A DNA stretch of 39,834 bases, taken from contig JBBSPX010000003.1 of NCBI GenBank assembly GCA_038258395.1, positions 1 through 39,834 of the forward strand, read 5' to 3'. The notes below the pieces were generated by a model. That model saw nothing but the letters and a program-made list of their open reading frames with translations. It was not told the DNA's origin and searched no databases. A program made the position numbers and the translations under genes. This document shows positions 1 to 35,847 of the stretch, one piece after another. The stretch is from Gemmatimonadales bacterium. Its GTDB lineage: Bacteria > Gemmatimonadota > Gemmatimonadetes > Gemmatimonadales > GWC2-71-9. The stretch's first letter is position 1. The number at the start of each line of letters is the position of its first letter.

Positions 1-1296
1 CCACCACCGCCACCGCCACCCTCACAGGTCACTGCACGGGTCACCGTCGACACGCTGACGAAGTATCAGGTCATGTCAGGCTGGGAGGCTGTGACACAAT
101 CGGGTCAGGACAGCCCCGGATTTTTCGGATGGCAGCAGGAGCTCATGGATCTCGCCGCCAACGACTTGGGACTCAATCGTGTCCGACTCGAGGTCCGGTC
201 GGGGGCGGAGAATCCGGTGGACAACGACGCCGCGTTGTTTGCGGGCACCATCACCGAGGCCGAATGGAGGACCAGTCGGTATACCGTCGTGAACGACAAT
301 GCCGATCCGAATGTGATCAATCCGGCGGGGTTCCATTTCACCGCACTCGACCGATCCATCAACCGGGTCGTCCTACCGCTCCGGCAGCGCCTCGCCGCGC
401 GCGGCGAGCACCTCTATGTGAACCTGAACTATGTCGCGTTCAGCTCCAGCACGAGTTCGCCGCACCTGAACGGCGTGGAGTATGCGGAGTTCATGCTCGC
501 AGTCTTCCAGCACATGCAGAGCAGCTTCGGCTTCGTCCCCGATGCCGTGGAAATCATCCTTGAGCCGGACAACAAGACTCCCTGGCGCGGAACGCTGATC
601 GGACAGGCGATCGCCGCAACGGGCTGGCGCCTCGCCGCTGCGGGATTCACGCCAGAGTTCATCGCACCATCCACCACCAACATGGCGAACACGATTCCGT
701 ACCTCGATCAAGTCGTCGCCGTGCCCTTCGCACTGACCTACCTCAAGGAAGTCGCGTACCACCGCTATGCCGGTGTGTCGGACGCCAACCTTGCGGCGAT
801 TCAGACGCGCGCCACTCAGCTCGGCCTGCGGACCGCCATGCTCGAACATGTCGGCAGCGGGGTGGAAGACCTCTACAAGGATTTGACGATAGCCAACGTC
901 TCGGCATGGCAGCAGTTCACTTTGGCGTTTCCCACCTCGGACAATGGGGCGCAATACTACACCATCACGAACGGCCAGCCCGTCATGGGAAGCCGGACAC
1001 CGGCGCTACGCCAGTACTTTCGTTATGTCCGCCAAGGGGCCCGTCGCACCAAGGCGTTCAGCAACAGTCTCGGAGTCCGTGCCGTGGGGTTCATCAACCC
1101 GGGCGGCGGACCCGTCGTGGTGCTTCATGCGGATGCCGCCGAGACCTTCGCGATTCGCGGCCTCCGACCAGGCCGGTACCTCGTCACCAGCGCGAACCCA
1201 TCTGCGGTCCTTCCAACCGATGCGATCGCGGGCGCGGACGGTGAGCTGCGATTCACTGCGATCAACGGAATCATCACGGTGGCCTATATCCCATGA
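1..1296 (+). CDS. Clan-A/GH30-like glycoside hydrolase, 5'-truncated, preceded by a poly-Pro linker
   Basis: Frame 1 is open from base 1: PPPPPPPSQVTARVTVDTLTKYQVMSGWE, resembling the GH30 N-terminal strand VD...YQ.I.GFG. It has LEP (NEP-like acid/base), YHRY, MLEH (nucleophile-like) and a C-terminal YFRYVRQGARR...NPGG beta-domain. Confidence 0.6.
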   Translation, partial: PPPPPPPSQVTARVTVDTLTKYQVMSGWEAVTQSGQDSPGFFGWQQELMDLAANDLGLNRVRLEVRSGAENPVDNDAALFAGTITEAEWRTSRYTVVNDNADPNVINPAGFHFTALDRSINRVVLPLRQRLAARGEHLYVNLNYVAFSSSTSSPHLNGVEYAEFMLAVFQHMQSSFGFVPDAVEIILEPDNKTPWRGTLIGQAIAATGWRLAAAGFTPEFIAPSTTNMANTIPYLDQVVAVPFALTYLKEVAYHRYAGVSDANLAAIQTRATQLGLRTAMLEHVGSGVEDLYKDLTIANVSAWQQFTLAFPTSDNGAQYYTITNGQPVMGSRTPALRQYFRYVRQGARRTKAFSNSLGVRAVGFINPGGGPVVVLHADAAETFAIRGLRPGRYLVTSANPSAVLPTDAIAGADGELRFTAINGIITVAYIP

Positions 1297-1357
1297 GCAT
1301 CCGGTACCTTGCTGTCCGGCTGCCTGCTGCACAATCCCCGTCCTTTCAGATTCCAGA

Positions 1358-3379: not shown

Positions 3380-4989
3380 CGACCCGCCAGCTCTGGCAAT
3401 GGAGTCGCTACGTCGTGCCGCGTGCCGCGGCACTCGCGATCGCTGCGGCATGGGTACTCTGGTCCGGGAGTGCCGAACTGTGGGCGACGATGCGAAGAGT
3501 GAACCTGCTCCGCGCGCTCCCGTTGCTCGGTGCGACCGCGGCGTGGTTCAGCTTGCGGTTCATTCGCTGGCAATTTCTCCTGCGCCACGCGGGTGTTCGC
3601 GTGCCAATCCGTCCGGCGCTCGCCACCTACCTCGCCGCGCTGCCGGGGACCGCGACGCCGGCGTATCTGGGAGAGTCCATTCGTGCCGTCTTTCTCCACC
3701 GGCGGTTCCGCACTCCGATCCGCCTTTCACTTCTGGCGATCCTGATCGAGCGGATCCACGACATCGCGGCACTTGCACTGCTCGCGCTGCTGCTTGCCCC
3801 GGCGGAGCATGCACTACTCGGCGGCCTTTTCCTCGGAGCGGCGGTGGCCGGCTGGTGGCTGCTCGGCCGCAGCCTTCGCAACACCTCGCTCTCGGCTGCC
3901 AGCGCGCGACTACTTCGCACCCCCTCAGTCATCATCCCCGCCCTACTGTTGTCACTCCTGGCCTGGATCGCTGCCGGTTTGCTGTATGCGATCGCAGGCT
4001 TCGCCCTTGGACTGCCGATGGGTGCGCTCGAGGGAGTCGCGATTTTTGCGCAGTCCACACTGTGGGGCGCGGCGACCTTGTTGCCCGCAGGGCTCGGCGC
4101 GACGGGGAGCGCGGCGATCCTCGACTTGCGACACGTCCTCCCGTCGACCGACGCCATCGCGCTGGTCACGTTGGTCCGACTGGGAAGCACTGGCGTTGCG
4201 CTGACGGTGGGCACCGTATTCCTGCTTCGAGAGCTGAGAGGTAAACCGACGGAGCCCGAGGGCGTGGCACATTTCGACGCCATTGCGGCCGATTACTCGG
4301 CACAGTGGTCCCCCCATGTCTGGGATCTCCTGCTCCAGCGCAAGGTGCAGATGCTATGCGACGCCCTGGGCGATCCTTGCTCTGCCGGCGTCGGCCTCGA
4401 TCTGGGGTGTGGACTGGGCCTGCAGACTGCCGAAATTCGTCGCCGCGGGTACCACGTGATTGGCGTCGAACCGTCAGTGGGTCTGTTGCGGCAGCGCCCG
4501 GACCGCATCGGCTCGGTGGTAGCCGGCGATGCGCTTCGACTTCCCTTCTCGGATCAGCGTCTCGACTTCGTCTATGTCGTCGGAGTGCTCCATCATCTTC
4601 CGAATCGCAGCGCCCAGCGCGTCGCACTGGCCGAAATTGCGCGTGTGCTTCGCCCCGGCGGCTTGCTCATGGTGCATGAGAGCAATCCCCGCAATCCGCT
4701 CTTTCGGTTCTATATGACCTATCTCTTCCCGATTCTGAAGAGCATCGATGAGGGGACGGAGTGGTGGATCCATCCCGAACGCTGGGAATCGGTCCCACGC
4801 ATGACGCTGGTCGACATCCGATACTTCACATTCCTTCCCGATTTCATCCCGCACGCGCTCATGACCCCGGCGCTCGGCGTCGAACGTCTTCTGGAAGGTG
4901 GGCCGACGTACCAGTATTCCGCCCACTATTTCGCAGTCCTTCGCCGTGCGCACAACGACGTACTCGCGGGTGCGGCCTTGCCAGACTGA
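3376..4989 (+). CDS. YbhN/lysylphosphatidylglycerol-synthase-TM (flippase-like) domain fused to a class I SAM methyltransferase
   Basis: GTG overlaps the upstream stop (GTGA) and follows an AGGAG RBS. N-half has R..RW..LL, TPAYLGE, ERIHD and LPAGLG. C-half has LDLGCGLG, GDALRLPF, VLHH and RVLRPGG. Confidence 0.8.
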   Translation: MTTRQLWQWSRYVVPRAAALAIAAAWVLWSGSAELWATMRRVNLLRALPLLGATAAWFSLRFIRWQFLLRHAGVRVPIRPALATYLAALPGTATPAYLGESIRAVFLHRRFRTPIRLSLLAILIERIHDIAALALLALLLAPAEHALLGGLFLGAAVAGWWLLGRSLRNTSLSAASARLLRTPSVIIPALLLSLLAWIAAGLLYAIAGFALGLPMGALEGVAIFAQSTLWGAATLLPAGLGATGSAAILDLRHVLPSTDAIALVTLVRLGSTGVALTVGTVFLLRELRGKPTEPEGVAHFDAIAADYSAQWSPHVWDLLLQRKVQMLCDALGDPCSAGVGLDLGCGLGLQTAEIRRRGYHVIGVEPSVGLLRQRPDRIGSVVAGDALRLPFSDQRLDFVYVVGVLHHLPNRSAQRVALAEIARVLRPGGLLMVHESNPRNPLFRFYMTYLFPILKSIDEGTEWWIHPERWESVPRMTLVDIRYFTFLPDFIPHALMTPALGVERLLEGGPTYQYSAHYFAVLRRAHNDVLAGAALPD

Positions 4990-9315: not shown

Positions 9316-10505
9316 CCGGCCGCCTCGCGCAGCGCGGCAAGCGCGTTGCGCGCGCTGTCGTCCCAGGTAAGCGCGTGCGCCCGCTCGCGGGCGCGGCGAC
9401 CCATGCTGCGCCGTGCGATCTCATCCGTCATCATCCGCTCGAGCGCGTCGGCCAGCGCGCGCTCATCGCCCGGTGCCACGAAGATCCCGCCGCCCTCGAG
9501 CAGCTGGGGCAGTGGACTGGCGGTCGTCGCAACCACCGGGGTCCCCGTCGCAGCTCCCTCGACAGGCGGAAGGCCGAAACCCTCGGACGCGGAGGGAAGC
9601 ACGACCGCGAGGGCCCCCGCGAGCAAGTCGCGGACGTCCTCGTCCGGCAGGAATCCCGTCCAGTGCACCAGCTCGGCGGTGCCGCACACTTCGATGGCAT
9701 TCGCGATCGTGGCCTGATCGCCATGGAAGGCGTCCCCGGCACGCGCACCGATCAGGAGGAGGTGGACTGGCGCGTCACTCGCGTGTGCCGTGCTCGCGTG
9801 CGCCCGCACCAGAATGTCGACGTGTTTGTGGGGACCGAAGCCTCCGACATAGGCAAACCACCGGGCACCGTCGGGCAGGCCGGCCGCGCGCGCCGCACGA
9901 CGGACTGCCTCGGCCGGCGGCGCGGTGCGATACAACTCCGCTGGTGCCAGCGGAGCCACCCGGATTCGGGCAGCCGACAACCGGTGCACGTCGGCGATCT
10001 CCTGCGCCGCATAGTCGGAGATCGTCAACACGAGGCGCGCCTGCCGAAGCGCGAGGGCCACCTTGGCCCGCCAGAAAAGCCGGGCCCGCCACGAGGGAAT
10101 GGTCAGCTCAGGGAATCGCTCGACGATCGCGTCCATCACCGTCACGACCGCGGGAAGCCCTAGCGGCAGCGGGAAGTAGGTGTAGACCGTCGGCGAAAAG
10201 AAGACATCCGGCCGGTGCCGCGCGACGGCCTGGGTGAAGCGAAGCATATCGAATGGGGAACGCGAGGAATCGGCGGCGGCGGCCGTCGTGGGCGAGACGC
10301 GCTGCGGCACCAGGATTGTCCGGACGTTGGGCGCATCGAGTGAGAAAACGGCCGCCGCACGCGCGTCAAGAAAGCAGACGAATTCGTCATCAGGTGCCTC
10401 GCGCACCATGGCTGACACCAACTCGCGTGTGAAGCGGCCGTACCCGCGAGCATTGGCCCAGCAGGTCGCGTCGATGCCGATACGAAGACTCACGTCGCGA
10501 GCCAC
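9312..10505 (-). CDS. Glycosyltransferase family 4
   Basis: RIGIDA...GYGRFT and PSASEGFGLPPVEG (EX7E motif). 4-bp overlap with the downstream GT4. Confidence 0.9.
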   Translation of the reverse strand: MARDVSLRIGIDATCWANARGYGRFTRELVSAMVREAPDDEFVCFLDARAAAVFSLDAPNVRTILVPQRVSPTTAAAADSSRSPFDMLRFTQAVARHRPDVFFSPTVYTYFPLPLGLPAVVTVMDAIVERFPELTIPSWRARLFWRAKVALALRQARLVLTISDYAAQEIADVHRLSAARIRVAPLAPAELYRTAPPAEAVRRAARAAGLPDGARWFAYVGGFGPHKHVDILVRAHASTAHASDAPVHLLLIGARAGDAFHGDQATIANAIEVCGTAELVHWTGFLPDEDVRDLLAGALAVVLPSASEGFGLPPVEGAATGTPVVATTASPLPQLLEGGGIFVAPGDERALADALERMMTDEIARRSMGRRARERAHALTWDDSARNALAALREAAG

Positions 10506-10651
10506 CCCGAAAGCCCGACGGGTTGCCAGGGACCGGGCCCAGCCACGTGCAACGGGTGACTCAAGTGTGGTATTCCTGCGACAGTCATGTGGTTCCTGGT
10601 GTGGTAGCGCAACAGGGGCCGAGAAGAGGCCTCAGGCTCCGGGCAGAGTCG

Positions 10652-10667
10652 AGCATCTTCCGTGCCC
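10652..10667 (-). promoter_or_regulatory. Putative sigma54 -24/-12 promoter for the GT4-GT4-epimerase-ArnT operon
   Basis: Minus strand GGGCACGGAAGATGCT = GG-N10-GC with GGCACG, but ATGC instead of TTGC. Confidence 0.4.
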
Positions 10668-10687
10668 TCCCCACACGATGCGCGACG

Positions 10688-10703
10688 AGGCACTCGGATT
10701 GCA
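10688..10703 (+). promoter_or_regulatory. Putative sigma54 promoter for the FkbM gene
   Basis: AGGCACTCGGATTGCA matches GGCAC-N5-TTGCA, about 110 bp before ATG 10812. Confidence 0.55.
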
Positions 10704-10811
10704 GGAAGTGTATCCTTCAAACTTCACTTGTCCTCATGCGCCCCCTTCCGATGCCGGCCCGACCGCATTCGCTGTCCCGGGCCAAACCCGATCCCTCCGG
10801 TGCCCCTCTTG

Positions 10812-11609
10812 ATGAAACGCCTCCATCGGCTCATGGAATTGGGCTTTCTGGCCCGACATCACGCCTCCGGCCCTGCGGGTGTGGCCGCATTGCTGTCCTG
10901 CTACGCCAAGACGTTCGGCGACCCGATGAGCACGGCCGAGGTCATCCTGCCTCTCCGGGCGGGTGACGCGCGACGCCACGTGGTGATGCGCGCCTGCGAT
11001 ATCTACACGATTGCGGAGGTGTTCCACGAACGGCAATACCAGCTGTCTCGCCGGCTGGGACCGGCACCCGTGATCGTGGACGCGGGAGCGAATATCGGAG
11101 TTGCTTCCACCTGGTTTCTGATGGCGCACCCGGATGCCACCCTGCTGGCCGTCGAACCGGTGTCCGAGAATTTCGGATGGCTCTCCCGAAACCTCAGCGG
11201 AGATCCCCGGGCCACAGTGGTCCAGGCCGCGCTCGGGGCGGAGGAAGCCACTGTCCTGATGGCGCTCTCACTGCACGGTGCCGAGCATGCGGTGGGAACC
11301 GCACCCGGGGTCGCGGGGAGCGAGCCGGTCGAATGCCGGCGGCTCGACCGCCTCCTTGCGGAGCACGCCATCACGCACATCGATCTCCTGAAGCTTGATG
11401 TCGAGGGGAGCGAGCTCGCCGCACTCGCCGGGCTCGGGAGCCGAATCGACCAAGTCGGCGCCATCGTCGCCGAGGTCCATGAGCGGCAAATCGACGTCGA
11501 GGCCTTCTACGCAATGCTGGCAGACCACCACTTCACGGTCGTCCGTCGAAAGTATTATCGTGAGGGAGAGGCGAGCGGGGTCCACACGGTCGAGGCGTGG
11601 CAGGAGTAG
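10812..11609 (+). CDS. FkbM family methyltransferase
   Basis: IVDAGANIG, AVEP and IDLLKLDVEGSE. Start trimmed to ATG 10812. Confidence 0.88.
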   Translation: MKRLHRLMELGFLARHHASGPAGVAALLSCYAKTFGDPMSTAEVILPLRAGDARRHVVMRACDIYTIAEVFHERQYQLSRRLGPAPVIVDAGANIGVASTWFLMAHPDATLLAVEPVSENFGWLSRNLSGDPRATVVQAALGAEEATVLMALSLHGAEHAVGTAPGVAGSEPVECRRLDRLLAEHAITHIDLLKLDVEGSELAALAGLGSRIDQVGAIVAEVHERQIDVEAFYAMLADHHFTVVRRKYYREGEASGVHTVEAWQE

Positions 11610-11629
11610 CCACACCATCGAAAATGCAG

Positions 11630-11645
11630 TGGCATGGGCGTTGCG
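11630..11645 (+). promoter_or_regulatory. Putative sigma54 promoter for the DsrE-like/beta-propeller operon
   Basis: TGGCATGGGCGTTGCG = TGGCAY-N5-TTGC, followed by an AGGAG RBS at 11691-11695. Confidence 0.6.
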
Positions 11646-11701
11646 GCGCTCGCTTGGCATACGCAACCATTGTCCCTTGGCCAAATACAGAGGAGTAGAT
11701 C

Positions 11702-12337
11702 ATGATGGAACGCCGTCGCGTGTTGGGAATGGCCCTCGCTGGGCTGGCTGGCGCCAGCCTCCCTCGTCCGCTGCACGCCGCCGCGTCTGGTCCCCTCGGA
11801 GCAGACGACTGGCTCGAATTTATCGCAGGGAAGGACTACCGCGCTTTCCTCGACATCCGCAGCTTTGCCCCGGATGGAACGCCCTTCCGGAAGGCCGCGA
11901 ACCTGTTGCGCGCCCTCGTCGAGGCGTTCGGCGCCAAGCCGGATCAGGTGGGTATCGCCTTCGGGGCAGGCTCCTCCTCGATCGCCCACGTGTTGGGCCC
12001 GAAGGTCTGGGCTGAGTACGGCGTCGGCCGCATGGTAGCGGGTCTCGCACGCACTCCAGCCGAGGCAACCTCACTGCGGGATGAACCGGCGAAGTGGGCC
12101 GCCACGGGAGGCGAGGCCGTCGCCACGATGCGCTCGGCGGGGATGCGCGTCCTTGCCTGCCGAAACTCCATCGGCCACTGGGCTCAGGCATTCGCCGCTG
12201 AATCCGGAGAGACACCCGAGGCCGTCAACGCCAAGCTTATCGCCGGGCTTCACGCCGGCGTCGAGCCGGTCCCCGCGATGATCGCGGCGGCCGTGCTCGC
12301 ACAGCGACGCGATCTGTCGTACGTCGCGATCGGGTGA
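11702..12337 (+). CDS. Tat-exported DsrE-like (sulfur-relay fold) protein
   Basis: ERRRVL plus hydrophobic stretch plus LHA cleavage site. Single Cys in LACRNS and C-terminal VPAM...LAQ...SYV typical of DsrE/COG1416-like proteins. Confidence 0.65.
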   Translation: MMERRRVLGMALAGLAGASLPRPLHAAASGPLGADDWLEFIAGKDYRAFLDIRSFAPDGTPFRKAANLLRALVEAFGAKPDQVGIAFGAGSSSIAHVLGPKVWAEYGVGRMVAGLARTPAEATSLRDEPAKWAATGGEAVATMRSAGMRVLACRNSIGHWAQAFAAESGETPEAVNAKLIAGLHAGVEPVPAMIAAAVLAQRRDLSYVAIG

Positions 12338-14313
12338 GAGTGGAGCCTGGGTCAGAGCTGACGCCGTCACCTGTGCAGCCTGAATCCAGGTCCGCCATGA
12401 CACGTGCGGTGGACCGGATTGCGCTCGGACTGACGATCGTGGCCGCGGTATTCATGGCGTTCCGCCAACCACCGCCCGACTTCCAGGACATGCTGCCGGT
12501 TGGCCCCGCGGTCTCAGTGTTCTTTCTGCTTCTCGGCGGAGTCCTCTGGATCGCTTTCCTGCAGCTGGGGAAAGCCGGTCCGGGCCGGTCGCACCCATGG
12601 TTGCCGCGACTCATGTTGTATGGGGCTGCAGCGGTGCTGGCCGGGATGCTCGGAACCCGCGTGGCGATTCAGGTGCACCAGCGATGGGACCCGGAGGTAT
12701 GGCCGCCGGGCTTCTCGCAGGCGCGGTCAGTTACCGTCAATGACCTGACCGCAGTCGAACGGGCCACGTGGGCGATATGGTTGGCGCTGCATGCCGCCGG
12801 CGACTCCGTCCGCGCAGACGAGATCCCCGCTATCCCGGCCGACTGGCCATTTCCGGACGACGTACGGCTTGCGATCCGCGGCGGCGAGACCAAAGCACCC
12901 GAATTGGTGGCGGTAACCGGTCGTGGAAACGCAGTGTGCCATGCGATCCTGAGCGCGGATCCCGGGGATTCGATTGAGGCCGTTCGCCTCGAGCCAATCT
13001 GCGACGAGCAGCCAGATGCGGCGTCAGTCCTTGACGCCAAGACCCCGGTTCGATCACACCTCGTGACTGCCGTCGCGGCGCCGACAGGACGCCATGGATC
13101 GTGGTCCCAACATCGGAAGGACGCGGCCCGGTCCGCCGAAGCCGATTCGTCCGGTACCGCGGTCGAGGGATGGCGGGTGCGGGTGCCCACTCCCATCCGG
13201 GCCAGCCTTTCGGTGGTGGACGACCTCGTGCTGGTTGGTGGCCACCTCACGGGATTGGTTGCGGCCCTCGACCGAGACACCGGTGCCGCACGCTGGTTCG
13301 CACGGGCACCGAACTGGATTCACCACGAACCGGTCTCGGACGGGCGGATCGTGGTCGTCGGGTTCGGCGACAAGGACGGGTCGTTTCTCGGGAGAGCGCC
13401 GTCGGGTGTTGCAGCGTTCGAGCTCGCCACGGGAAGGCGACTGTGGACCGCTTTTGACGAGAGCTCGGTGATGACCTCTCCTGTCATCCAGAACGGGATG
13501 GTGCTGTACGTCAGTGCGGCCGGAATGCTGAGGAAACGGGACGCCTCGACCGGCGCACTGATCAAGGAACTCCGCCTTCCTGGTGGGGTCATCATGGGAC
13601 CTCCGACCCTGTCCGCTGGCACACTGGTCATCAACTTGGATCCGGGAACCGTCTGCGCGGTGGAGATCGCGACCTTCGAGGAGCGCTGGTGCAGCACCTT
13701 TCCAGGACTCCGGCGCATGGGGCATGGCAGCCCCGCTATTGCCGGGCAGATGGTCGTCGTCAGCGCGGTCACGTCGATGTTTCCGCCCGGCCCCGCCGAG
13801 TTCGTGAAGTTGCCATTCATGGTCCAGGCGGCGCTTCTCCGGGCAGTGATCTTCCCCAAGTACTGGAGCGCGTCCTATTCGGGGCAGGTGTTCATGGGGC
13901 TTGACCTGGCCACCGGACGGCAACAGTGGATCAGCCGTTTTTTCGGCGTGGAACGAACGACCAAGGGGCACATGGCTGGCACTGCGACGGTCCGGAACGG
14001 TCGAGCGGCAATTGTGCTTCCCCTCGCCGACTCGATCATCGCGTTCGATCCGAATTCTGGTGCGATCGCCTGGAGCAACCCGGCGCATAGCGCCCGTGGC
14101 GCCCCGTTACTCTTCGATGACGTGGTGTTGCTTGCCGGACGGGATGGGATCATTCAGGTTCGGCGGATGACAGACGGCACTGTCACGTGCAGCCTGAAGC
14201 GGGCGGTCGGATGGGATCGCGCCGGTCCGGTGTTGGCCGGTGGCCTCGTGGTCTTCGCTGACCTCACCGGGGGTATCGAGGCGATTCCGACAGGCGAATT
14301 GCTTGGCTGTTGA
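12334..14313 (+). CDS. Membrane-anchored PQQ-like beta-propeller, tetrathionate hydrolase (TetH)-like, copy 1
   Basis: GTGA overlap with the DsrE-like stop. About 3 N-terminal TM helices, then repeated A.D..TG...W blades; blade-by-blade resemblance to TetH recalled from memory. Confidence 0.65.
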   Translation: MRVEPGSELTPSPVQPESRSAMTRAVDRIALGLTIVAAVFMAFRQPPPDFQDMLPVGPAVSVFFLLLGGVLWIAFLQLGKAGPGRSHPWLPRLMLYGAAAVLAGMLGTRVAIQVHQRWDPEVWPPGFSQARSVTVNDLTAVERATWAIWLALHAAGDSVRADEIPAIPADWPFPDDVRLAIRGGETKAPELVAVTGRGNAVCHAILSADPGDSIEAVRLEPICDEQPDAASVLDAKTPVRSHLVTAVAAPTGRHGSWSQHRKDAARSAEADSSGTAVEGWRVRVPTPIRASLSVVDDLVLVGGHLTGLVAALDRDTGAARWFARAPNWIHHEPVSDGRIVVVGFGDKDGSFLGRAPSGVAAFELATGRRLWTAFDESSVMTSPVIQNGMVLYVSAAGMLRKRDASTGALIKELRLPGGVIMGPPTLSAGTLVINLDPGTVCAVEIATFEERWCSTFPGLRRMGHGSPAIAGQMVVVSAVTSMFPPGPAEFVKLPFMVQAALLRAVIFPKYWSASYSGQVFMGLDLATGRQQWISRFFGVERTTKGHMAGTATVRNGRAAIVLPLADSIIAFDPNSGAIAWSNPAHSARGAPLLFDDVVLLAGRDGIIQVRRMTDGTVTCSLKRAVGWDRAGPVLAGGLVVFADLTGGIEAIPTGELLGC

Positions 14314-14373
14314 GCCGTCGGGTTAGAGGCTGGCCCAAGCGGAGACTAGGGTCCGCCCTGTCGCGCAGACGGG

Positions 14374-14444
14374 TACAGAGGAGTAGAGCATGATGGAACG
14401 CCGTCCCACCCTCGCCGGACTCGACGCCGGCGTCGAGCCCGTCC
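14374..14444 (+). pseudogene. Collapsed remnant of the DsrE-like gene forming the RBS and N-terminus of beta-propeller copy 2
   Basis: 14374-14405 matches 11686-11717 (31/32 nt). 14412-14444 matches 12240-12272 (29/33 nt). Confidence 0.75.
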
Positions 14445-16393
14445 AATCGACGAGATGGCCGGGGAGACTGGCGGCTATCTGGCTTGTGGGGCTGGCGCTC
14501 TTCTTCGCCTTCCGCGAGCCGGCCTGGGGCAAGTACGACCCGCTCCCCACCGGGATCATTCCCGGCGCCTGGTACCTCCTGATCGCGGCACTCCTGCTCG
14601 CCACGCTGCGCCATGCCGCGCGAACGACCCTCGTCACGCGGTGGCTACTTCGCACGACCGTCTTGATGGTGACGCTCCTGTTGACGGCGATGGGTTGGAC
14701 ACGGATCCGCCTCGCCCGTGAGGTGAACGCGTCAACCAACGAGTGGCCACCGCGTCCGGAGCGGATCGGTTCCGTCGATATCGACACGCTCACACCGTGG
14801 CAACGTGCGGAATGGGGCGCGAGGATCGGGGGGCATGTGGCGGTGGACCGTGGTCGCCTCGCGTTGCCAATAAGCATTCCGCCAGAGTGGCCACTTCCGA
14901 AGGACGTCGAATTTGCGGTTCGCGAACGGGGCCCTCAGGAATTTGAGATCTGGTCGCGGGTGAGCGATGGCACCGCGGTCTGCCAATCCATCCTGCTCGG
15001 CGCGAACATCGTGGTCGACAGTATTTCGCGGAATCAACGGTGCCGTGACGCCCGCCGTGCACCGCCGGAACTGCATTTCAATGCACCTCAGCGGATCTCC
15101 GAGGCGCGCACAGTCGCTCCGAGCGACGAGCCCCGACCAGCTTGGACTCAATACCGGGCCGACGCTGCCAGGACCGCAAGCCGGGACGGTACGGTTGGCG
15201 GTCCGCCTGCCAGCGGTTGGCGCACGGTGCTCGATGGGCGCATCCGGGCCAGCGCCAGTGTCGCAGGCGACTTGGTTCTGGTGGGTGGGCACGGCACGGG
15301 GAGCCTGACCGCACTCGATCGATCCTCTGGAGCGGTCCGGTGGATCGCCCGCGTCCCAAACTGGGTTCATCAGGACCCCGTCACCGACGGTCGCGTCGTG
15401 GTGGTCGGCTTTGGGGACAATGAGGGATCATTCTCCAGTTGGGCGCCCTCGGGGGTCGCCGCGTACGACCTCGCCACCGGATCGAGACTGTGGACGGGTT
15501 TCGACGAGGGCTCCGTCATGACCAGCCCGATCATTCACGATTCGGTGATCGTCTATGGCAGCGGTGCAGGTCAACTTCGACAGCGATCGCTCGCGAGCGG
15601 GACGCTCCTGATCGACAGGATGCTGCCGGGTCCTGTGACGATGGCACCACCGGTGGCCATCGGCGACACGGTCGTATTCAGCCTCGATTACGGGATGGCA
15701 TGCGCCCTCCTGATCGAGACGCTCCAACCACTCTGGTGCCAAGAAATTTCCGACCTCCGGAAACTCGGGCATTCGTCCCCGACAGTTGCTGGTGACAGGG
15801 TGTTTCTGAGCGGAGTCGCGACGGTCCGGTCGCCATCCCTTGGAGAGTTCCGTCATCTCGGGCGTGGTCTGCAGTGGCGACTGGTCAAGTCCGCGCTCTT
15901 TCCCGGCAAGTACGAGGTGTATGCCGGGCAAGTCTTCCTTGCGCTCGACCTGCACGACGGGCACCAAGTCTGGCGAAGCAAGCTCTTCGCGCTCTCACGC
16001 GATATCGCCGGGCACACGTCCGGCACCGCGACGGTCGAGGACTCCATCGGCGTGGTGGTCCTTCCGGTCGCAGACACCATGGTAGCCTTCTCGACCCACT
16101 CCGGAGTCACGCGCTGGACTGCCAGCGGCCACGCGGCACGCGGCCCCCCATTGATCCTGAACCATCGTCTGGTGATCGCCGGGCGCGACGGCGTCATCGA
16201 GGTGCGGGACCTGGACGATGGCGCACTGCGGTGCACCATACGGCGACCGGTTGGGTGGGACCGGGCCGGACCAATCGTGGCCGGCGGCCTCGTGATCTTC
16301 GCTAACCTGGACGGGGAAATCGAGGCGATCCCGACAGGAGACTTGCTTGGCTGTCGAGCCACCGCGTCAGAGGTCGGCCCGGGCGGAGACTAG
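14390..16393 (+). CDS. Membrane-anchored PQQ-like beta-propeller, TetH-like, copy 2
   Basis: Clear paralog of copy 1 (NW.H..PV.DGR.VVVGFGD, SVMTSP, VGWDRAGP, IEAIPTG). AGGAG RBS. Confidence 0.65.
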   Translation: MMERRPTLAGLDAGVEPVQSTRWPGRLAAIWLVGLALFFAFREPAWGKYDPLPTGIIPGAWYLLIAALLLATLRHAARTTLVTRWLLRTTVLMVTLLLTAMGWTRIRLAREVNASTNEWPPRPERIGSVDIDTLTPWQRAEWGARIGGHVAVDRGRLALPISIPPEWPLPKDVEFAVRERGPQEFEIWSRVSDGTAVCQSILLGANIVVDSISRNQRCRDARRAPPELHFNAPQRISEARTVAPSDEPRPAWTQYRADAARTASRDGTVGGPPASGWRTVLDGRIRASASVAGDLVLVGGHGTGSLTALDRSSGAVRWIARVPNWVHQDPVTDGRVVVVGFGDNEGSFSSWAPSGVAAYDLATGSRLWTGFDEGSVMTSPIIHDSVIVYGSGAGQLRQRSLASGTLLIDRMLPGPVTMAPPVAIGDTVVFSLDYGMACALLIETLQPLWCQEISDLRKLGHSSPTVAGDRVFLSGVATVRSPSLGEFRHLGRGLQWRLVKSALFPGKYEVYAGQVFLALDLHDGHQVWRSKLFALSRDIAGHTSGTATVEDSIGVVVLPVADTMVAFSTHSGVTRWTASGHAARGPPLILNHRLVIAGRDGVIEVRDLDDGALRCTIRRPVGWDRAGPIVAGGLVIFANLDGEIEAIPTGDLLGCRATASEVGPGGD

Positions 16394-16402
16394 TCTCCGC
16401 CC
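16381..16402. repeat. Perfect 22-bp palindrome carrying both convergent stop codons
   Basis: GGGCGGAGACTAGTCTCCGCCC is its own reverse complement. The central CTAG holds the TAG of both genes. Confidence 0.85.
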
Positions 16403-17328
16403 TGTCGTGCTGGCTGGGGCGGCGGGACGACCGCCCGCTCGGGTGCGGTCCTTGGAAGCAGGACACGCGCTTCAGCAGGTTCGTGACCCGCTGTGGCATA
16501 CGGCACGCCATCGGGGGCACCGCCGTTGGGCCAATCCTGTGCCTTCCCCGGCAGGTCCGGCCGAGGTTGCCGATCGAGGTAGGCAGCCACGTCCCAGGCC
16601 TGCTGGTCGGTCAGGGAACCCGGCAGAGAGAGTGGCATGTTGCGCCGGACAAACGCGGCAGCCACTGCGATGCGGGCCATCGAGGCCCCGATGCTGAAGG
16701 ATCGAGGACCCCAGAGCGCCGGGGCCCTTGGGAAGGCCCCGCCTTCACCCTGCGCCCCGTGGCACACCGCACATGTCGAGGCATACACCTCGCGTCCACG
16801 CGTGCTGTCTCCCTCGAGCGTCGGGATGGCAGGGATACCCAAACTGTCTGGGGCAGCACCGCCGACCGGCACGCCCTTCGAGAGGAAGGTGAGATAGGCC
16901 ACAATGTCCTGCATCTCACGACTGTGCGACGGCAGGCTCAGCCCAGCAAGACTCCGGGTCATGCAGTAGTTGATCCGGTCCTCGACGGGGATCACCGCCC
17001 CGACACGACCCAGATATTTCGGGAAGCGTGCCACCACGCCCAACAGTGGAGCCGCGCCGATCTGCCGCCCATCCGCCAGATGACAGCTGGTGCAATTCAG
17101 CGAGCTGAGCGCAAAGTCCGGCAACGAATCGGGCGTGTTCCGCATGATCGCCTGACCACGCCGGATGGCCGCTCCAAGTTGGTCGTTCGGGATCAGCGAG
17201 TCCGCAGGCGGGGACCAGGCCAACGGGACGGCCTCGCCCGGTGTTCGTGCGCACCCTGTCAAACAGATCAGGACGAGGAGGGGCAGGAGGCGCCCCTGGG
17301 TCGAGTGTCGCAATCGGTCGACTGCCAT
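16390..17328 (-). CDS. tsdA: Thiosulfate dehydrogenase/tetrathionate reductase, diheme cytochrome c, lipoprotein
   Basis: Two CxxCH motifs (CTSCH, CAVCH), RINYCMTRS containing the catalytic Cys, PALWGPRSFSIGASMAR, NMP heme-2 ligand motif and lipobox LTGC. Confidence 0.85.
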   Translation of the reverse strand: MAVDRLRHSTQGRLLPLLVLICLTGCARTPGEAVPLAWSPPADSLIPNDQLGAAIRRGQAIMRNTPDSLPDFALSSLNCTSCHLADGRQIGAAPLLGVVARFPKYLGRVGAVIPVEDRINYCMTRSLAGLSLPSHSREMQDIVAYLTFLSKGVPVGGAAPDSLGIPAIPTLEGDSTRGREVYASTCAVCHGAQGEGGAFPRAPALWGPRSFSIGASMARIAVAAAFVRRNMPLSLPGSLTDQQAWDVAAYLDRQPRPDLPGKAQDWPNGGAPDGVPYATAGHEPAEARVLLPRTAPERAVVPPPQPARQGGD

Positions 17329-17364
17329 ACGAATAGCCCCTGTTCAGGTACAGTGGAACAGCAT

Positions 17365-17380
17365 TGCAAGCACCATGCCC
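17365..17380 (-). promoter_or_regulatory. Putative sigma54 promoter for tsdA
   Basis: Minus strand GGGCATGGTGCTTGCA = GGCAY-N5-TTGCA, about 37 bp before the ATG. Confidence 0.55.
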
Positions 17381-17417
17381 CTCTGGGTGCCCCGGCCGTC
17401 CTTGCGCCCGTGCAGGT

Positions 17418-18845
17418 TCAATCCTCCACGACATGCGTTTCGAAGTGCCGGCGATGTTCCTGCCACAACGAGGTATTGAACCCTGCCGGTTCGAGACACT
17501 CCGCCGCTGCGTACGCCATCGCCAGGGCGTGATGCGTGTTGTCGTGTGCGAACAACCCCTGCCGGCCATAGCTCAACAGCCGTGGCAGTGACTCCGCCCA
17601 CGCATCGAGCTCGGCAAACGGTCCTTCATAGCCGGTGGCGTAGATCGGATACGCCTGCTTCAGGCGGCGCACATGGATCCCGTCCGGTGCGACCGGCAAC
17701 GGAACGCCCGCCCGCGCAAGATCCTCCGCCACGAGTGCGCCAAGCGCCGCGTCGTCGAGCTTCCACCACGGGTCGTCCGGCCCGGCAGGCAACTCGGCGC
17801 AGAGCACGGTATGCCCCGGTGTTGCGCGCAGGTCGCCATAGTTCTTCGGTTCCGACAGCCGGGTGATCCGGAGGTCGGCACTGGGGAAGTAATGCGCGTC
17901 GAACTCGGTGAACTGATCGATCGGGAGCGAGAGGTACACCAACAACATGCCGCGGTACTCCATCGCGCCTGCTGCCCGCTTCACCGCGTCGGGGACATCG
18001 TCGCCGATCAGTCGTGCGAGCAGGGTGATCGGAATCGTAGACCAGAGCTGATCGGCTTCGACACGCTCGACCGCCCCGTCGTGCTCCGCCTCGATGATCC
18101 ACGGGTCACTTGCGCCGGCCGGCGGAACCAGTCTGGTCACCCGGCGGCCGTACCGGAATTCCGCGCCCAGCGCGGTGGCCGCGTCGGCATATGCCTCGCT
18201 GATCTGGCCATAACCGTGACGCGGATAGAAGAACCTCCCGGCACCGGGCGGTTTGAGGCCGGGTACGGCGTTCAGGACCTTGCGCGCCAGCTTGAGGAAC
18301 GATCCAGCCGACACGCGACGGCGGGCCTGGATGCCGGAGAGCTCCGAGGGATCACGGCCCCAGATCTTGCGCGCGTATGGAAAGTAGAAGGAATCGCAAA
18401 TCGTCGGACCGAGATTTGCCCACAGCACATCGGCAAAGGAGTCGCCTGTCGGCGGCCGACGAAACGGTTTCACCACCATGTCACGGAAGGTGCCCAGCGC
18501 GAAGCCGGGATCGAGTCGGATCAGCAGGTCCTGCGGCTTGAGCGGAAAATGAATCCAGCGACCGCGCAACCCGATGCGGCCATGACGCGGGCGGTCGAGC
18601 AGGTCGTCACCGAGGAGGTCTACGATTTCCGCCATGATCCCGGGATCGGTCGCGGGATGGAGCCGGTGACTGCCGTAGTCCACCCGCATCCCCGCGAATT
18701 CGAAGGAGCCGGCGTTGCCCCCGGGGACGGCCTGCTGCTCGAGCACAGTAACCCGCGCCCGGTCAAGCTGTCGCAATTTGAACGCGCCGCCGACGCCGGC
18801 AGGGCCGGCACCGAGAATGACGACGCGTGGCGGAGACGTACTCAT
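17418..18845 (-). CDS. FAD-dependent oxidoreductase (COG1232, NDP-sugar mutase-like)
   Basis: GAGPAG dinucleotide motif, DYGSHRLH, YARKIWG, FFYPRHGYGQI, AYPIY and GRQGLF. Confidence 0.75.
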   Translation of the reverse strand: MSTSPPRVVILGAGPAGVGGAFKLRQLDRARVTVLEQQAVPGGNAGSFEFAGMRVDYGSHRLHPATDPGIMAEIVDLLGDDLLDRPRHGRIGLRGRWIHFPLKPQDLLIRLDPGFALGTFRDMVVKPFRRPPTGDSFADVLWANLGPTICDSFYFPYARKIWGRDPSELSGIQARRRVSAGSFLKLARKVLNAVPGLKPPGAGRFFYPRHGYGQISEAYADAATALGAEFRYGRRVTRLVPPAGASDPWIIEAEHDGAVERVEADQLWSTIPITLLARLIGDDVPDAVKRAAGAMEYRGMLLVYLSLPIDQFTEFDAHYFPSADLRITRLSEPKNYGDLRATPGHTVLCAELPAGPDDPWWKLDDAALGALVAEDLARAGVPLPVAPDGIHVRRLKQAYPIYATGYEGPFAELDAWAESLPRLLSYGRQGLFAHDNTHHALAMAYAAAECLEPAGFNTSLWQEHRRHFETHVVED

Positions 18846-19810
18846 CGATCACCCACCTGAGTCGAAGCTGTGCGGGCCGGGGCAGAGCGGAAGGAGAAGG
18901 CGCGGTCGCGGCCGAGCAGCAACCACGCCGCCCCACCGAGGAGTCCCCCGGCGATCATGACGGTCTGCCACAACAGGGAACAAACGACACTGACGGCGGC
19001 CGGCACCCCGAAGGGGAGGAGGAGCGCCGCGAGACTCCCTTCCCGGACGGCAATCCCGCCGAGCGAAATCGGAACCAGCGCCGCAATCTTCGCGAGCGGC
19101 CAGACCAGGAACCAGGTCGCGTAACCAACCTCGATGCCGACACTGCGTCCGAGCCAGCTGTTGAGAAATACGAAGCCCGACTGGATCGTCAGTGACATCA
19201 GCAGTCCGAGTACTGCGATCCCCGGTCGGCGCCAGAGCGACCGCAATCCCACCAGGCCACGGCCCACAGGGCGGCGGATGCGGCGAGGCCAACGGGCGAG
19301 TGGTCGTCGGAGCAGGAAGGGAAACCCCATCGCCATCACGCCGAGTCCCACGACGATCGCGACCGTGAGCGCTTGGCCGAGCCATCCGTCCAACTGGCTC
19401 CGCGCGAGGGTCCCACCGATCACCACAAGAATGGTGAGCGCGAGCATGTCGGTGAGCCGATCCATGATGCTGCCCGAGAGGGCCGCCTCCGGTCGACGGG
19501 TGACCCGGCCCGCCATCGCCACCCGGAGCACATCGCCTCCCACGATTGTCGGGAGACAGAGATTGGCAAACAATCCCGCGCTGTAGCAGGTGATGGCATC
19601 GCGCGCTCGGAGTCCGCCCCGGGCCGCGTTGACGAAGAGTCGCCACTTGGCGACGCCCAGCAAATGCCCACCGACAAACCCCGCGAACACGCCGAGCCAC
19701 ACGCGAGGCGAGAGTCGCCCCAGTGCGTCACGCACGCCACCCCATGGCAAGATCAGAAAGAGCACAATCAGCAGTGCGACGCTGATTGTCGCCTTGAGCC
19801 AGGGTTTCAT
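18842..19810 (-). CDS. YbhN/LPG-synthase-TM family membrane protein (flippase-like)
   Basis: NLCLPTIVGGDVLR, DRLTD and PISLGGIAVRE. Confidence 0.85.
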   Translation of the reverse strand: MKPWLKATISVALLIVLFLILPWGGVRDALGRLSPRVWLGVFAGFVGGHLLGVAKWRLFVNAARGGLRARDAITCYSAGLFANLCLPTIVGGDVLRVAMAGRVTRRPEAALSGSIMDRLTDMLALTILVVIGGTLARSQLDGWLGQALTVAIVVGLGVMAMGFPFLLRRPLARWPRRIRRPVGRGLVGLRSLWRRPGIAVLGLLMSLTIQSGFVFLNSWLGRSVGIEVGYATWFLVWPLAKIAALVPISLGGIAVREGSLAALLLPFGVPAAVSVVCSLLWQTVMIAGGLLGGAAWLLLGRDRAFSFRSAPARTASTQVGDR

Positions 19811-20700
19811 CGGCGTCCGGCAATGCGAACATTCTGGTCCGCAAGGAGGCCAACGGACCAGACCACCAAGGCGCCGATGATCCCCAGGACCGCGCTCTCG
19901 GAGAGGTTGTCCCGCGTAATGTCAAAGATGAATTTCCCGACACCTGCGACAAAGAGCACCGCACCGAGCGGGAGAAAGACCTTGAGGGGATTGAAGAACA
20001 CAATGGTACGCACGATCAGAATGGTGAAGTCGTAGGCGTGCCGCGCCCGAATGCTGGATTGGCCGAGTCGCGCATGGTAATCGATCGGAACATAGACGAA
20101 CGCGTGCCCATTGCACGCCGCCGACATCGTGATGGTCGTCGTGAACGAGAAGCCGTCCGGCAACAGGAATTCGTAGCGCTGGATCAGACTCCGCCGCATC
20201 AGGCGCAGTCCACTATTGATGTCCGGCAGTCGCTGCCCGGCGAGATAGCCGGCCAGGCGATTGAGAAACCATTTGGCGGGCCGCCGGATCAGCGGAATTG
20301 CCACGTTCGCGCCGAGGCGGCCACCGATCACCATCTCATTCCGATCGGCCTCCGCGAGCAGCGACGGGATCGCTTCGACGGGATAGGTCCCGTCGGCATC
20401 CGTGATCAAGATCCAATCATACTGTGCTCGCGAGATCCCGAGCTTCAGTGCGGCTCCGTAGCCCCGGTTCTGCGGTCGGCGCAGGACCACGGCGCCCGTA
20501 AGGTCCGCCTCGGTCGCGGTGGCATCGGATGATCCATCGTCCACCACAATGACCTCGTAGGCCCAATCGGTCGCGGCAAGGGTGCGTTGCACGGCACGCA
20601 CCTGCTCCGCGACGTGATCACCCTCGTTGTAAGCGGGGATCACGACCGTCACGGCGCGCTCCAGACGCAGGGGGTCGTTCCCAGCGATCTCCTCGATCAC
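19807..20700 (-). CDS. GT2 polyprenol-phosphate glycosyltransferase (DPM1/ArnC-like)
   Basis: VVIPAYNE, VVDDGSSD, NRGYGAALK, DADGTY and two C-terminal TM helices. GTG 20700 follows GGAGG; ATG 20724 is an alternative start. Confidence 0.88.
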   Translation of the reverse strand: MIEEIAGNDPLRLERAVTVVIPAYNEGDHVAEQVRAVQRTLAATDWAYEVIVVDDGSSDATATEADLTGAVVLRRPQNRGYGAALKLGISRAQYDWILITDADGTYPVEAIPSLLAEADRNEMVIGGRLGANVAIPLIRRPAKWFLNRLAGYLAGQRLPDINSGLRLMRRSLIQRYEFLLPDGFSFTTTITMSAACNGHAFVYVPIDYHARLGQSSIRARHAYDFTILIVRTIVFFNPLKVFLPLGAVLFVAGVGKFIFDITRDNLSESAVLGIIGALVVWSVGLLADQNVRIAGRR

Positions 20701-20746
20701 GCGTTCCTCCGGGATGTTGATCATGAACCAGGTGATGGGAACTGGC

Positions 20747-20762
20747 TGCAAGGGCAATGCCG
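20747..20762 (-). promoter_or_regulatory. Putative sigma54 promoter for the GT2-YbhN-oxidoreductase operon
   Basis: Minus strand CGGCATTGCCCTTGCA = GGCAY-N5-TTGCA. Confidence 0.55.
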
Positions 20763-21038
20763 CGGCGTCCACCAAGCTAGTCTGCGGCCGGGGGCCGTGC
20801 GAGGTGGGCAGCTCACCCCGACGGGCACCGGCCTTGGGATCCCACCAGTTTCGCCTATCGGACTCCATCACTGTACCGGACCACCCGGCCGGCACGATCC
20901 ACCCCCCCGCAGGAGGCCTATCTGCCACGAGGATCCCGACGCGACCGTCCGAGTCGGCGCCAGCCAGCATGGGAGCACCCCGCGTGATCGCCGCCTTCGG
21001 GTACCTTACAGATTCCGCGCCTTGCCTCTGGAGAACGC

Positions 21039-22583
21039 ATGCCAACCCGCCCGAGCCTTGTTGCCGCCGCCACGCTCCTGCTGCTCACCGCCGCCGCCCC
21101 GATCGGTCCCGACCCGGTCGACTGGATGATGGTCGCCCGAATCCGTGAGGAAGGGCTGCAACATTCCCAGGTGATGAACTTCGAGAGTTTCATCACCGAT
21201 GTACTCGGCGCTCGGTTCACCATGTCGACCGATATGGTTCGCGCCCAGGGCTGGCTCCAGGCCGAGTTGACCCGACTCGGGCTCGTGAACGTCACCGCCG
21301 AGCCTTTCATGGAGTTCGGGGCCAGCTGGGACAACGACTTCGCATCGATGCACATGATCCAGCCCGACTATTCGCCCATGGTTGCCTACCCCGTCGCCGA
21401 AACACCCGGTACTGACGGTCCCCAGTTGGTCGAGGCAGTGATTGTCGACGTACAAACCCGCGAAGATATGGTGCGCCTGCACGGCACTCTCACCGGCAAG
21501 GCGGTACTCGTGTCGCCCCCATTGCCGATCGATGTCGCCAAGCTCGCGCGCGGTATGCCACGTCTCACCGATAGTGCGCTCGCGGCGCTCGAACACACGG
21601 TCATCCGACCGGCCCAATCGGTGAGCGCACGACGGATCCCCAACCCCGACCTGGTGAGCACCGAGGAGAAGCTCGCCTTCTACAAGGCGGAGGGCGTCGC
21701 CGCCGTGGTGCAGTGCGACGGCGGTTGGCTCGGCGCGGTGACCGGGTACGCCCGTCCCGGTGCCGCGCGCGACGGCTGGTCTCGCGCGGGCATCCTCGCC
21801 TCGCCGCCCATCGTGGTCGTGACACCTGAACACTACAATCGGATGTACCGGATCCTGCAGCGGAAGATCCCGGTCACGGTGTCGATCGATATCCGGACCC
21901 GCATTGGCACCGAACCACTCCAGGCGAAAAACATCACGGCCGAAATCCCGGGCAGCGATCTCAAGGATCAGGTCGTGATGCTTGGTGCGCACTTCGATAG
22001 TTGGCACGGCAGCCCCAACGCCAGCGACAACGCCTCGGGTGTCGCCGTCGCCCTCGAAGCGATGCGCATCCTCAAGGCGGTGGGCGCCAAGCCGCGGCGG
22101 ACGATCCGCGTGGTGCTCTGGAGCGGCGAGGAGGAGGGGCTGCTCGGGTCGCGCGCCTATGTCCGCAAGCACTTTGGTGATCCGCGTGACCCGGGGATCG
22201 GAACGACAGCCGAATATCAGAAGTTGTCGGTCTACTTCAACCAGGACTACGGCGCGGGGCAGTACCGCGGCGTCTACCTGCAGGGGAACGAGGCCGCTCG
22301 CGGCATGCTCACCGCCTGGATGGCGCCATTCCGCGATCTCGGCATGACCACCGTGTCGAATCAGAGTGTGGGGCAAACCGATCACGTCCCGTTCGACGAC
22401 ATCGGCCTGCCAGGGATCCAGTTCCTGCAGGATCACCTGCCGGCCGAGGGCGGCCATACTAACCTCGACTTCTACGACACCATTCAGGCCGACGACCTGA
22501 TGAAGAATGCCGTCATCATGGCCTCCTACGTCTGGCACGCAGCGATTGCGGATGACCTGGTGCCGCGCAAGACCCTGAGGTAG
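21039..22583 (+). CDS. Secreted M28 family metallopeptidase
   Basis: Signal peptide, GAHFDSW, DNASG, GEEEGLLGS and TDHVPF. Confidence 0.88.
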   Translation: MPTRPSLVAAATLLLLTAAAPIGPDPVDWMMVARIREEGLQHSQVMNFESFITDVLGARFTMSTDMVRAQGWLQAELTRLGLVNVTAEPFMEFGASWDNDFASMHMIQPDYSPMVAYPVAETPGTDGPQLVEAVIVDVQTREDMVRLHGTLTGKAVLVSPPLPIDVAKLARGMPRLTDSALAALEHTVIRPAQSVSARRIPNPDLVSTEEKLAFYKAEGVAAVVQCDGGWLGAVTGYARPGAARDGWSRAGILASPPIVVVTPEHYNRMYRILQRKIPVTVSIDIRTRIGTEPLQAKNITAEIPGSDLKDQVVMLGAHFDSWHGSPNASDNASGVAVALEAMRILKAVGAKPRRTIRVVLWSGEEEGLLGSRAYVRKHFGDPRDPGIGTTAEYQKLSVYFNQDYGAGQYRGVYLQGNEAARGMLTAWMAPFRDLGMTTVSNQSVGQTDHVPFDDIGLPGIQFLQDHLPAEGGHTNLDFYDTIQADDLMKNAVIMASYVWHAAIADDLVPRKTLR

Positions 22584-22627
22584 CAGTATCCTTCGTCGAA
22601 CTCCCCACACAAAAATCGAGACTGCCC

Positions 22628-30070: not shown

Positions 30071-30074
30071 CGCG

Positions 30075-35826: not shown

Positions 35827-35847
35827 CTTCTCACCTCTCACTTCTCA
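35827..35847 (-). repeat. Heptamer tandem repeat (TGAGAAG) x3 starting at the hipA stop
   Basis: Minus strand TGAGAAG TGAGAGG TGAGAAG. Confidence 0.8.

Follow-up and report, generated by a model that had tools for sequence, protein, structure and literature searches.

Tetrathionate hydrolase (TetH) is, to our knowledge, known only from acidophiles, and its mechanism relies on a protonated aspartate. What, then, are TetH-like genes doing in a phylum of non-acidophiles known from metagenome-assembled genomes (MAGs), next to a gene for a thiosulfate dehydrogenase paralogue? We analysed a stretch of 39,834 nucleotides from a Gemmatimonadales bacterium (the window, to which coordinates refer; GCA_038258395.1, contig JBBSPX010000003.1, from a MAG of 2.58 Mb that is 81.6% complete), which carries two tandem genes for eight-bladed propellers, P1 and P2. 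Both proteins are related to TetH and carry a histidine in the column of its catalytic aspartate. We tentatively propose, with somewhat less than even confidence, that they are neutral-pH, His-catalysed, cofactor-free polythionate hydrolases of the TetH type that work with two neighbouring gene products, TsdA and Tat211. The two propeller genes are:

12334..14313, + strand: P1, an open reading frame (ORF) of 659 amino acids, for which gene callers prefer the ATG at 12397
14390..16393, + strand: P2, an ORF of 667 amino acids, a paralogue of P1 with identical architecture

P1 and P2 share 44% identity across 573 residues (BLASTP, E 1e-159) and are the sole two copies of the family in this MAG, at its stated completeness. 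An AlphaFold2 model of P1 based on 40 relatives (predicted local distance difference test 87.2, predicted template modelling score 0.88) has three transmembrane (TM) helices at the N-terminus (residues 17-43, 58-80 and 89-118), a small alpha/beta domain at about 120-279 that holds C202 and C223, and a propeller at 280-659 whose eight four-stranded blades are closed by an N-terminal strand (280-283). Arg and Lys are distributed round the helices in a way that suggests that the propeller side lies outside the cytoplasm, a placement that fits the six Cys conserved across the propeller family. Pfam assigned only the generic PQQ_2 (84.5 and 86.2 bits against a cut-off of 27.6), the best NCBIfam match was BamB at 73.3 bits, far under the cut-off of 285.2, and an Atlas search with the propeller gave no usable match once PQQ families were skipped. 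Alcohol and methanol dehydrogenases dependent on pyrroloquinoline quinone (PQQ) resemble P1 and P2 in having an eight-bladed propeller, in placing the active site at the mouth of the channel and in the neighbouring c-type cytochrome, but the TetH-type relatives function without PQQ. We rejected identity with these dehydrogenases, as PF01011 (PQQ) matched P2 only, at 18.2 bits under a cut-off of 26.7, and TIGR03075 reached 18.3 bits under a cut-off of 480.

The relationship to TetH appears in both the family profile and the fold. A profile of 40 family members found TetH as the closest solved protein (6l8a_A, E 1.3e-19; 7cqy_A, E 2.1e-19), with BamB behind it (E 1.2e-14), and Foldseek with the P1 model likewise placed 6l8a_A at the top (E 6.5e-27, TM-score 0.75 on the target; best BamB 7.1e-22). 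The HMMER alignment pairs SVMTSP of the family with ETMATP of TetH, viMapp with DNMSSV, aRGp with GRSAP, veaip with IMAIP, and mlGHaaP with a segment that reads GIGDVSP in wild-type TetH and GIGNVSP in the entry for the D325N mutant. Because 6l8a (D) and 7cqy (N) differ at that residue, His464 of P1 and His461 of P2 occupy the Asp325 column unambiguously. The initial annotation, which covered 13090..16393 (P1 residue 253 through the end of P2), had described TetH-like propellers with His at the catalytic Asp position, and the profile, the fold and the formal alignment bear out both statements. Its motif pairings also survive for Met238, Met279, Asp325, the Arg and the C-terminal strand motif. 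Adding 29 to the TetH chain index recovers Met238, Met279 and Asp325 and places Met172 in NNLMGNP; the in-register alignment begins only at profile position 336, and the proposed counterpart of Met172, His330 in NWIHHEP, would follow from blade order together with an out-of-register match to the same blade motif.

In the same alignment the GRSAP Arg of TetH corresponds to P1 R588, while H546 stands opposite a TetH Phe and R629 opposite an Ile. BamB has Leu/Arg-type residues at both Met sites, as judged from the single-sequence alignment of P1. Descent of P1 and P2 from the same ancestral stock as the cofactor-free TetH is the best explanation of these equivalences. P1 and P2 lack the defining Asp and should therefore not be classed as tetrathionate hydrolases.

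Conservation of the pocket was counted over 108 members, which are representatives of 50% and 90% clusters with lengths of 560-720 amino acids only. The pocket residues span 13198..14220 in P1 and 15245..16264 in P2, with P2 numbers obtained by shifting the P1 residues by the BLASTP alignment offsets, and each paralogue holds the full set:

P1 13198-13200 and P2 15245-15247, + strand: R289 and R286, kept in 106 of 108 members
P1 13243-13245 and P2 15290-15292, + strand: H304 and H301, 106 of 108
P1 13321-13323 and P2 15368-15370, + strand: H330 and H327, 108 of 108
P1 13471-13473 and P2 15518-15520, + strand: M380 and M377, 108 of 108, the Met238 column
P1 13594-13596 and P2 15641-15643, + strand: M421 and M418, 108 of 108, the Met279 column
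P1 13723-13725 and P2 15770-15772, + strand: H464 and H461, 93 of 108, the Asp325 column
P1 13969-13971 and P2 16013-16015, + strand: H546 and H542, 100 of 108, with Asn in 6
P1 14095-14097 and P2 16139-16141, + strand: R588 and R584, 108 of 108
P1 14215-14220 and P2 16259-16264, + strand: D628-R629 and D624-R625, the Asp in 107 of 108 and the Arg in 108 of 108

In the model, R289, H330, M380, M421, H464, H546, R588 and R629 each lie three to six residues ahead of strand A, the innermost one, in blades 1-8; the B-C loop of blade 1 holds H304. When Gly/Pro and structural Trp/Cys are excluded, the positions kept in at least 95% of members are R289, W328, H330, M380, M421, R588, D628 and R629 in D-A loops and H304 in a B-C loop; the A-B and C-D loops hold none. 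The D-A and B-C loops of a propeller always share a face, with strand A lining the axis, so the residue set is predicted to ring the mouth of the central channel on one face. The expectation in the initial annotation that conserved His and Met residues at equivalent loops of successive blades surround the channel is thus upheld by the family counts and by the loop topology of the model. It had also pointed to an H.ARG motif in both paralogues; among 40 members, only 22 retain the His of that motif (H585).

The column of the catalytic Asp varies: across the 108 members, position 464 is His in 93 and Asp in 7, and is S, T, G, V or L in some others. On a FastTree of these members (midpoint-rooted, read without support values) an acid arises there at least five times, in a D464/N546 clade and in P0111 (E/N), P0086, P0039 and P0083 (D/S). 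Repeated Asp or Glu would be expected if a proton-transfer residue is required at this position, and the exchange of Asp, Glu and His fits such a role, although a ligand role would be compatible too. Asp or Glu at 464 often accompanies Asn or Ser at 546 (the D/N clade of four members, P0111 and P0083), and the two positions, which sit on neighbouring blades, may act as a pair. The three invariant Arg of the ring would suit an oxyanion substrate. For TetH itself, one paper reports that Af-Tth refolds active 'without PQQ or other cofactors' and gives Asp325 as the proposed general acid (PMC10859504), and according to another the catalytic Asp of tetrathionate hydrolases is occasionally Glu (PMC11818568).

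Under our proposal, P1 and P2 would be eight-bladed enzymes anchored in the inner membrane and facing the periplasm. They would retain the TetH pocket at the mouth of the central channel, with the Met238 and Met279 columns and the GRSAP Arg, and would add two further invariant Arg. H464/H461, flanked by H546, H330 and H304, would replace the general acid Asp325. The reaction would be hydrolysis of the sulfane-sulfonate bond of tetrathionate or another polythionate, in which the sulfonate groups would be bound by Arg side chains and the sulfur chain would run along the Met residues. At periplasmic pH, a His with a near-neutral pKa would protonate the leaving sulfur, which a protonated Asp can do in acid only. 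The putative partners are a lipoprotein TsdA that would make tetrathionate from thiosulfate and a Tat-exported Cys protein, and their genes flank the propellers:

11702..12337, + strand: Tat211, 211 amino acids, with a stop that overlaps the start of P1
16390..17328, - strand: TsdA-type dihaem cytochrome c, a thiosulfate dehydrogenase paralogue convergent with P2

The cytochrome matched the Pfam families SoxA-TsdA_cyt-c (PF21342, 48.5 bits against 27) and Cytochrom_C, and aligned to thiosulfate dehydrogenase 4wqc at E 4.9e-52 with the haem-ligand Cys column in register. Its two haem motifs read CTSCH and CAVCH, and Cys122 is the haem-ligand Cys. A lipobox (LTGC) follows its signal sequence, so that by this motif the protein would be tethered to the membrane like the propellers; structurally characterised TsdA is soluble. 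The stop codons of P2 (+) and TsdA (-) overlap in the palindrome CTAG at 16390..16393, which leaves no space for a terminator between the convergent genes, and a promoter and terminator scan of 10400..17600 gave no signal above shuffled sequence.

TsdA adjoins the propellers in 8 of 22 genome loci (tblastn). All eight come from different genomes of the close (Gemmatimonadales) group, which numbers 10 genomes, and they include L015, where the gene order is rearranged. A tree of 29 TsdA-type sequences places the propeller-linked copies in one clade together with L075, L078 and the basal L076, and the ordinary TsdA copies of the same genomes in a separate clade. Within the genus of the window, three genomes (G000, G047 and G117) have the propellers, two TsdA genes, the extra one falling in the propeller-linked clade, and a Tat211 orthologue (E 1e-95 to 1e-102), whereas three others (G048, G075 and G105) lack the propellers and carry a single, ordinary TsdA along with Tat211 paralogues that are only distant. 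Each of 10 further propeller-bearing genomes contains a TsdA-type gene somewhere, against 57 of 121 genomes in the phylum sample.

Two observations concern other TsdA genes. The nearest TsdA relative without propellers, in genome G020 from a related family of the phylum, is the first gene of an operon (L082, contig C3, 9391..13307) whose other genes encode a sulfite-oxidase-type molybdoenzyme, a cytochrome c and two Sulf_transp proteins; together they make up a compact thiosulfate/sulfite module. In G000, the second TsdA-type gene, of the ordinary clade, lies at 3813..4040 (- strand) of contig C90 (L077) within an open frame of about 590 amino acids that could be a fusion or an over-long frame.

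Tat211 carries a twin-arginine signal (ERRRVLG) and a cysteine, Cys153, in the motif VLACRN. R4, R5, C153 and a VPAM motif are invariant in the family alignment. It matches no Pfam family even at E 10, and its profile gave nothing meaningful against the PDB (best E 0.31). JGI labels 8 of 98 homologues DsrE/DsrF, and the nearest named Atlas cluster is DsrE with a score of 0.86, which is a lead only; when we compared Tat211 with DsrE ORFs by hhalign, the Cys motif alone aligned (E 0.033, probability 1.5%). Of 18 windows of 2.7 kb around TsdA genes, 7 hold a Tat211 paralogue immediately next to an ordinary TsdA gene; all seven are from other Gemmatimonadota genomes (L063, L068, L069, L070, L071, L072 and L080). 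The family thus looks like an undescribed TsdA-associated one, and the propellers lie within a recurring TsdA/Tat211 pair. A complex prediction for the P1 propeller (255-659) with mature Tat211 scored 0.00, which is uninformative either way.

Several observations weigh against polythionate hydrolysis. Identity to TetH is only 18%, and the catalytic Asp is absent from both propellers, which have His instead. Used as a single query, P2 finds TetH nowhere among its 20 matches at E<=10, and P1 reaches BamB at E 5.1e-11 and TetH at only 4.9e-4 in the PDB; BamB is the top single-sequence PDB match for both. The TM anchor and the N-terminal domain have no counterpart in TetH. The placement of the conserved residues derives from the loop topology of the model. 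The TsdA tree is midpoint-rooted and was read without support values, and the genomes behind the linkage counts are close kin, so that the counts overstate independence. At its 81.6% completeness, the MAG yielded no SoxZ and no Pfam match to DsrE, and DoxD below threshold only. To the same side belong the genomic surroundings of the wider family. Polysaccharide genes occur in 12 of 21 Pfam-scanned loci and glycosyltransferase genes flank the propellers in the window itself. Five loci (L021, L022, L023, L035 and L037, L023 being from a Gammaproteobacteria MAG) are independent polysaccharide contexts without adjacent TsdA or Tat211, and their members nonetheless retain the whole residue set.

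These surroundings raise a serious rival, and our chief caveat, which we consider unlikely: that the propellers act as enzymes in the periplasm, where they would cleave or modify an anionic envelope polysaccharide or its lipid-linked precursor. His would then serve as acid/base and Arg would hold carboxylate, phosphate, pyruvyl or sulfate groups; the resemblance to TetH would reflect fold ancestry only, and TsdA and Tat211 would be a lineage-specific addition. The scanned loci were the window, L003, L005-L009, L013, L014, L019-L024, L026, L033, L035, L037, L039 and L043, with neighbour lists that come from a strict ORF picker and are not complete gene maps. The polysaccharide genes in the 12 loci encode sugar-nucleotide epimerases and dehydratases, GT2, GT4, PMT_2, Wzx-type Polysacc_synt, CapD-type Polysacc_synt_2, GNVR, Wza-type Poly_export/SLBB, deacetylase, pyruvyl transferase and NusG/UpxY-like proteins. 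In addition, L014 has a GT2 that was detected via tblastn only. Some of these loci share a genome (L003/L005 and L008/L013) or are syntenic with the window. Further out on one side, the window propellers are flanked by GT4, GT4, an epimerase, PMT_2 and an FkbM methyltransferase, and on the other by an amine-oxidase-type flavoprotein, LPG_synthase_TM and GT2. This second block (17418..21045, - strand) is inverted relative to L005, L006 and L011, so that the window TsdA follows it on the same strand.

The distribution of the family is also as one often finds for genes of polysaccharide loci: it is patchy, with 6 positive genomes among the 121 sampled from the phylum. Its 22 loci (21 in Gemmatimonadota and the one in the gammaproteobacterial MAG) hold one to three tandem paralogues each. 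Propeller-fold polysaccharide lyases, moreover, have His and Arg at the propeller centre. Set against a glycan substrate are the lack of any match of P1 or P2 to a carbohydrate-active family in Pfam or NCBIfam and the two invariant Met shared with the TetH pocket, which glycan chemistry leaves unexplained. The immediate operon partners in the window belong to a TsdA-linked set, and the other 9 of the 21 loci have housekeeping or unrelated surroundings in place of polysaccharide genes. A limited literature search gave no relevant account of propellers in polysaccharide clusters. If this reading were true, the family would represent a new periplasmic glycan-processing fold.

We regard it as quite unlikely that a metal, most obviously copper, is bound by the four His and two Met of the ring. 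The propeller would then be a redox enzyme or a metal-dependent sulfur enzyme, with electron exchange to the dihaem cytochrome encoded next to it. These six residues are conserved near the axis on one face, a c-type cytochrome is conserved as neighbour, and the replacements of His by Asp/Glu at 464 and by Asn at 546 are ligand-compatible as well. PMC11818568 places Met172, Met238 and Met279 of TetH 'near the tetrathionate binding pocket', terms them 'putative metal ligands' and notes His sometimes in place of Met; in its Table 2, however, divalent ions, copper not among them, barely affect the Metallosphaera enzyme. The reported refolding of active TetH without a cofactor (PMC10859504) also speaks against a metal, and two of the three TetH Met are inherited in P1 and P2. 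Some members have S, T, G, V or L at 464, and three invariant Arg together with an Asp also form part of the ring. The dihaem cytochrome belongs to the His/Cys TsdA type, with a substrate chemistry of its own, and we saw no copper chaperone genes in the window. The channel of an eight-bladed propeller is wide, so that a single ion may lie out of reach of residues from facing blades. The initial annotation had suggested a chemistry other than acid Asp catalysis, perhaps at neutral pH or dependent on copper; its neutral-pH half is the better supported, and its metal half found no support.

Very unlikely, in our estimate, is a more ambitious scheme in which the three kinds of protein form an undescribed, membrane-tethered, Sox-like minimal machine for thiosulfate oxidation. 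TsdA would couple thiosulfate to the invariant Cys of Tat211 or make free tetrathionate, the His-bearing propellers would hydrolyse the terminal sulfonate at neutral pH, and the propeller would thereby fill the role of SoxB with an unrelated fold. The analogy with the Sox system lies in the SoxA/TsdA-type cytochrome with its His/Cys character, in the small size, export and lone invariant Cys of Tat211, and in the hydrolase, which would act on a sulfane-sulfonate to set sulfate free; the two systems differ in that Tat211 has no sequence relation to SoxYZ, nor the propellers to SoxB.

A BamB-like role, in which the propellers would be scaffolds for envelope assembly without catalysis of their own, is highly improbable, for although BamB shares the eight-bladed PQQ_2 propeller, leads the single-sequence PDB and NCBIfam matches and lends its name to several members at JGI, and the genes lie in envelope-related loci, the invariant, catalytic-looking ring of polar and Met residues in the central pocket is foreign to it and both profile and fold favour TetH. 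We rejected BamB identity itself on the sub-cut-off NCBIfam score, the three TM helices in place of a lipobox, and an occurrence in 6 of 121 genomes that does not befit a core BAM subunit.

A polythionate hydrolase of this kind would differ from TetH (Af-Tth, 6L8A; D325N, 7CQY) in more than the general acid. Both are eight-bladed PQQ_2 propellers, periplasmic in TetH and by prediction in P1 and P2, and they have in common the Met238 and Met279 columns, the GRSAP Arg and the C-terminal strand motif. The propellers depart from TetH in the His at the Asp325 column and, by blade order, probably also at Met172, and in two further invariant Arg and an Asp in the ring, R629 having no Arg counterpart in Af-Tth. 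TetH is a soluble, secreted homodimer held together via two insertion loops, unlike P1 and P2 with their three TM helices and extra domain, their six conserved Cys, their low identity to it, their tandem paralogues and a wider family found in polysaccharide loci. Linkage to the gene of a thiosulfate-oxidising enzyme would be a further likeness: here it is TsdA, and in Acidithiobacillus tetH presumably lies beside doxDA.

A marine-sediment metagenome survey describes thousands of TsdA and DoxD genes, many of them in Gemmatimonadota, and no TetH (PMC12345210). P1 and P2 are sequence-based candidates for the neutral-pH breakdown of tetrathionate made by TsdA and DoxD, on account of the His at the acid position, a membrane site beside their own TsdA paralogue, and joint gain and loss with it. 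They would offer a natural experiment in how a catalytic residue that works only in acid is replaced for neutral pH. Were the Sox-like scheme true, many neutral-pH genomes with TsdA and 'no TetH' may have been misread.

Elsewhere in the window, three ORFs have no Pfam family: 944..3379 (+ strand, 811 amino acids) and 21006..22610 (- strand, 534 amino acids), both within the glycosyltransferase cluster, and 33175..35592 (- strand, 805 amino acids). A HipA-like kinase gene at 35845..37164 (- strand; HipA_C and Couple_hipA) is likely a toxin-antitoxin module. A GH95 glycoside hydrolase gene at 30024..32495 (+ strand, 493.9 bits) adjoins genes for an S15 X-Pro dipeptidyl peptidase, an M20 peptidase and an amino-acid permease.

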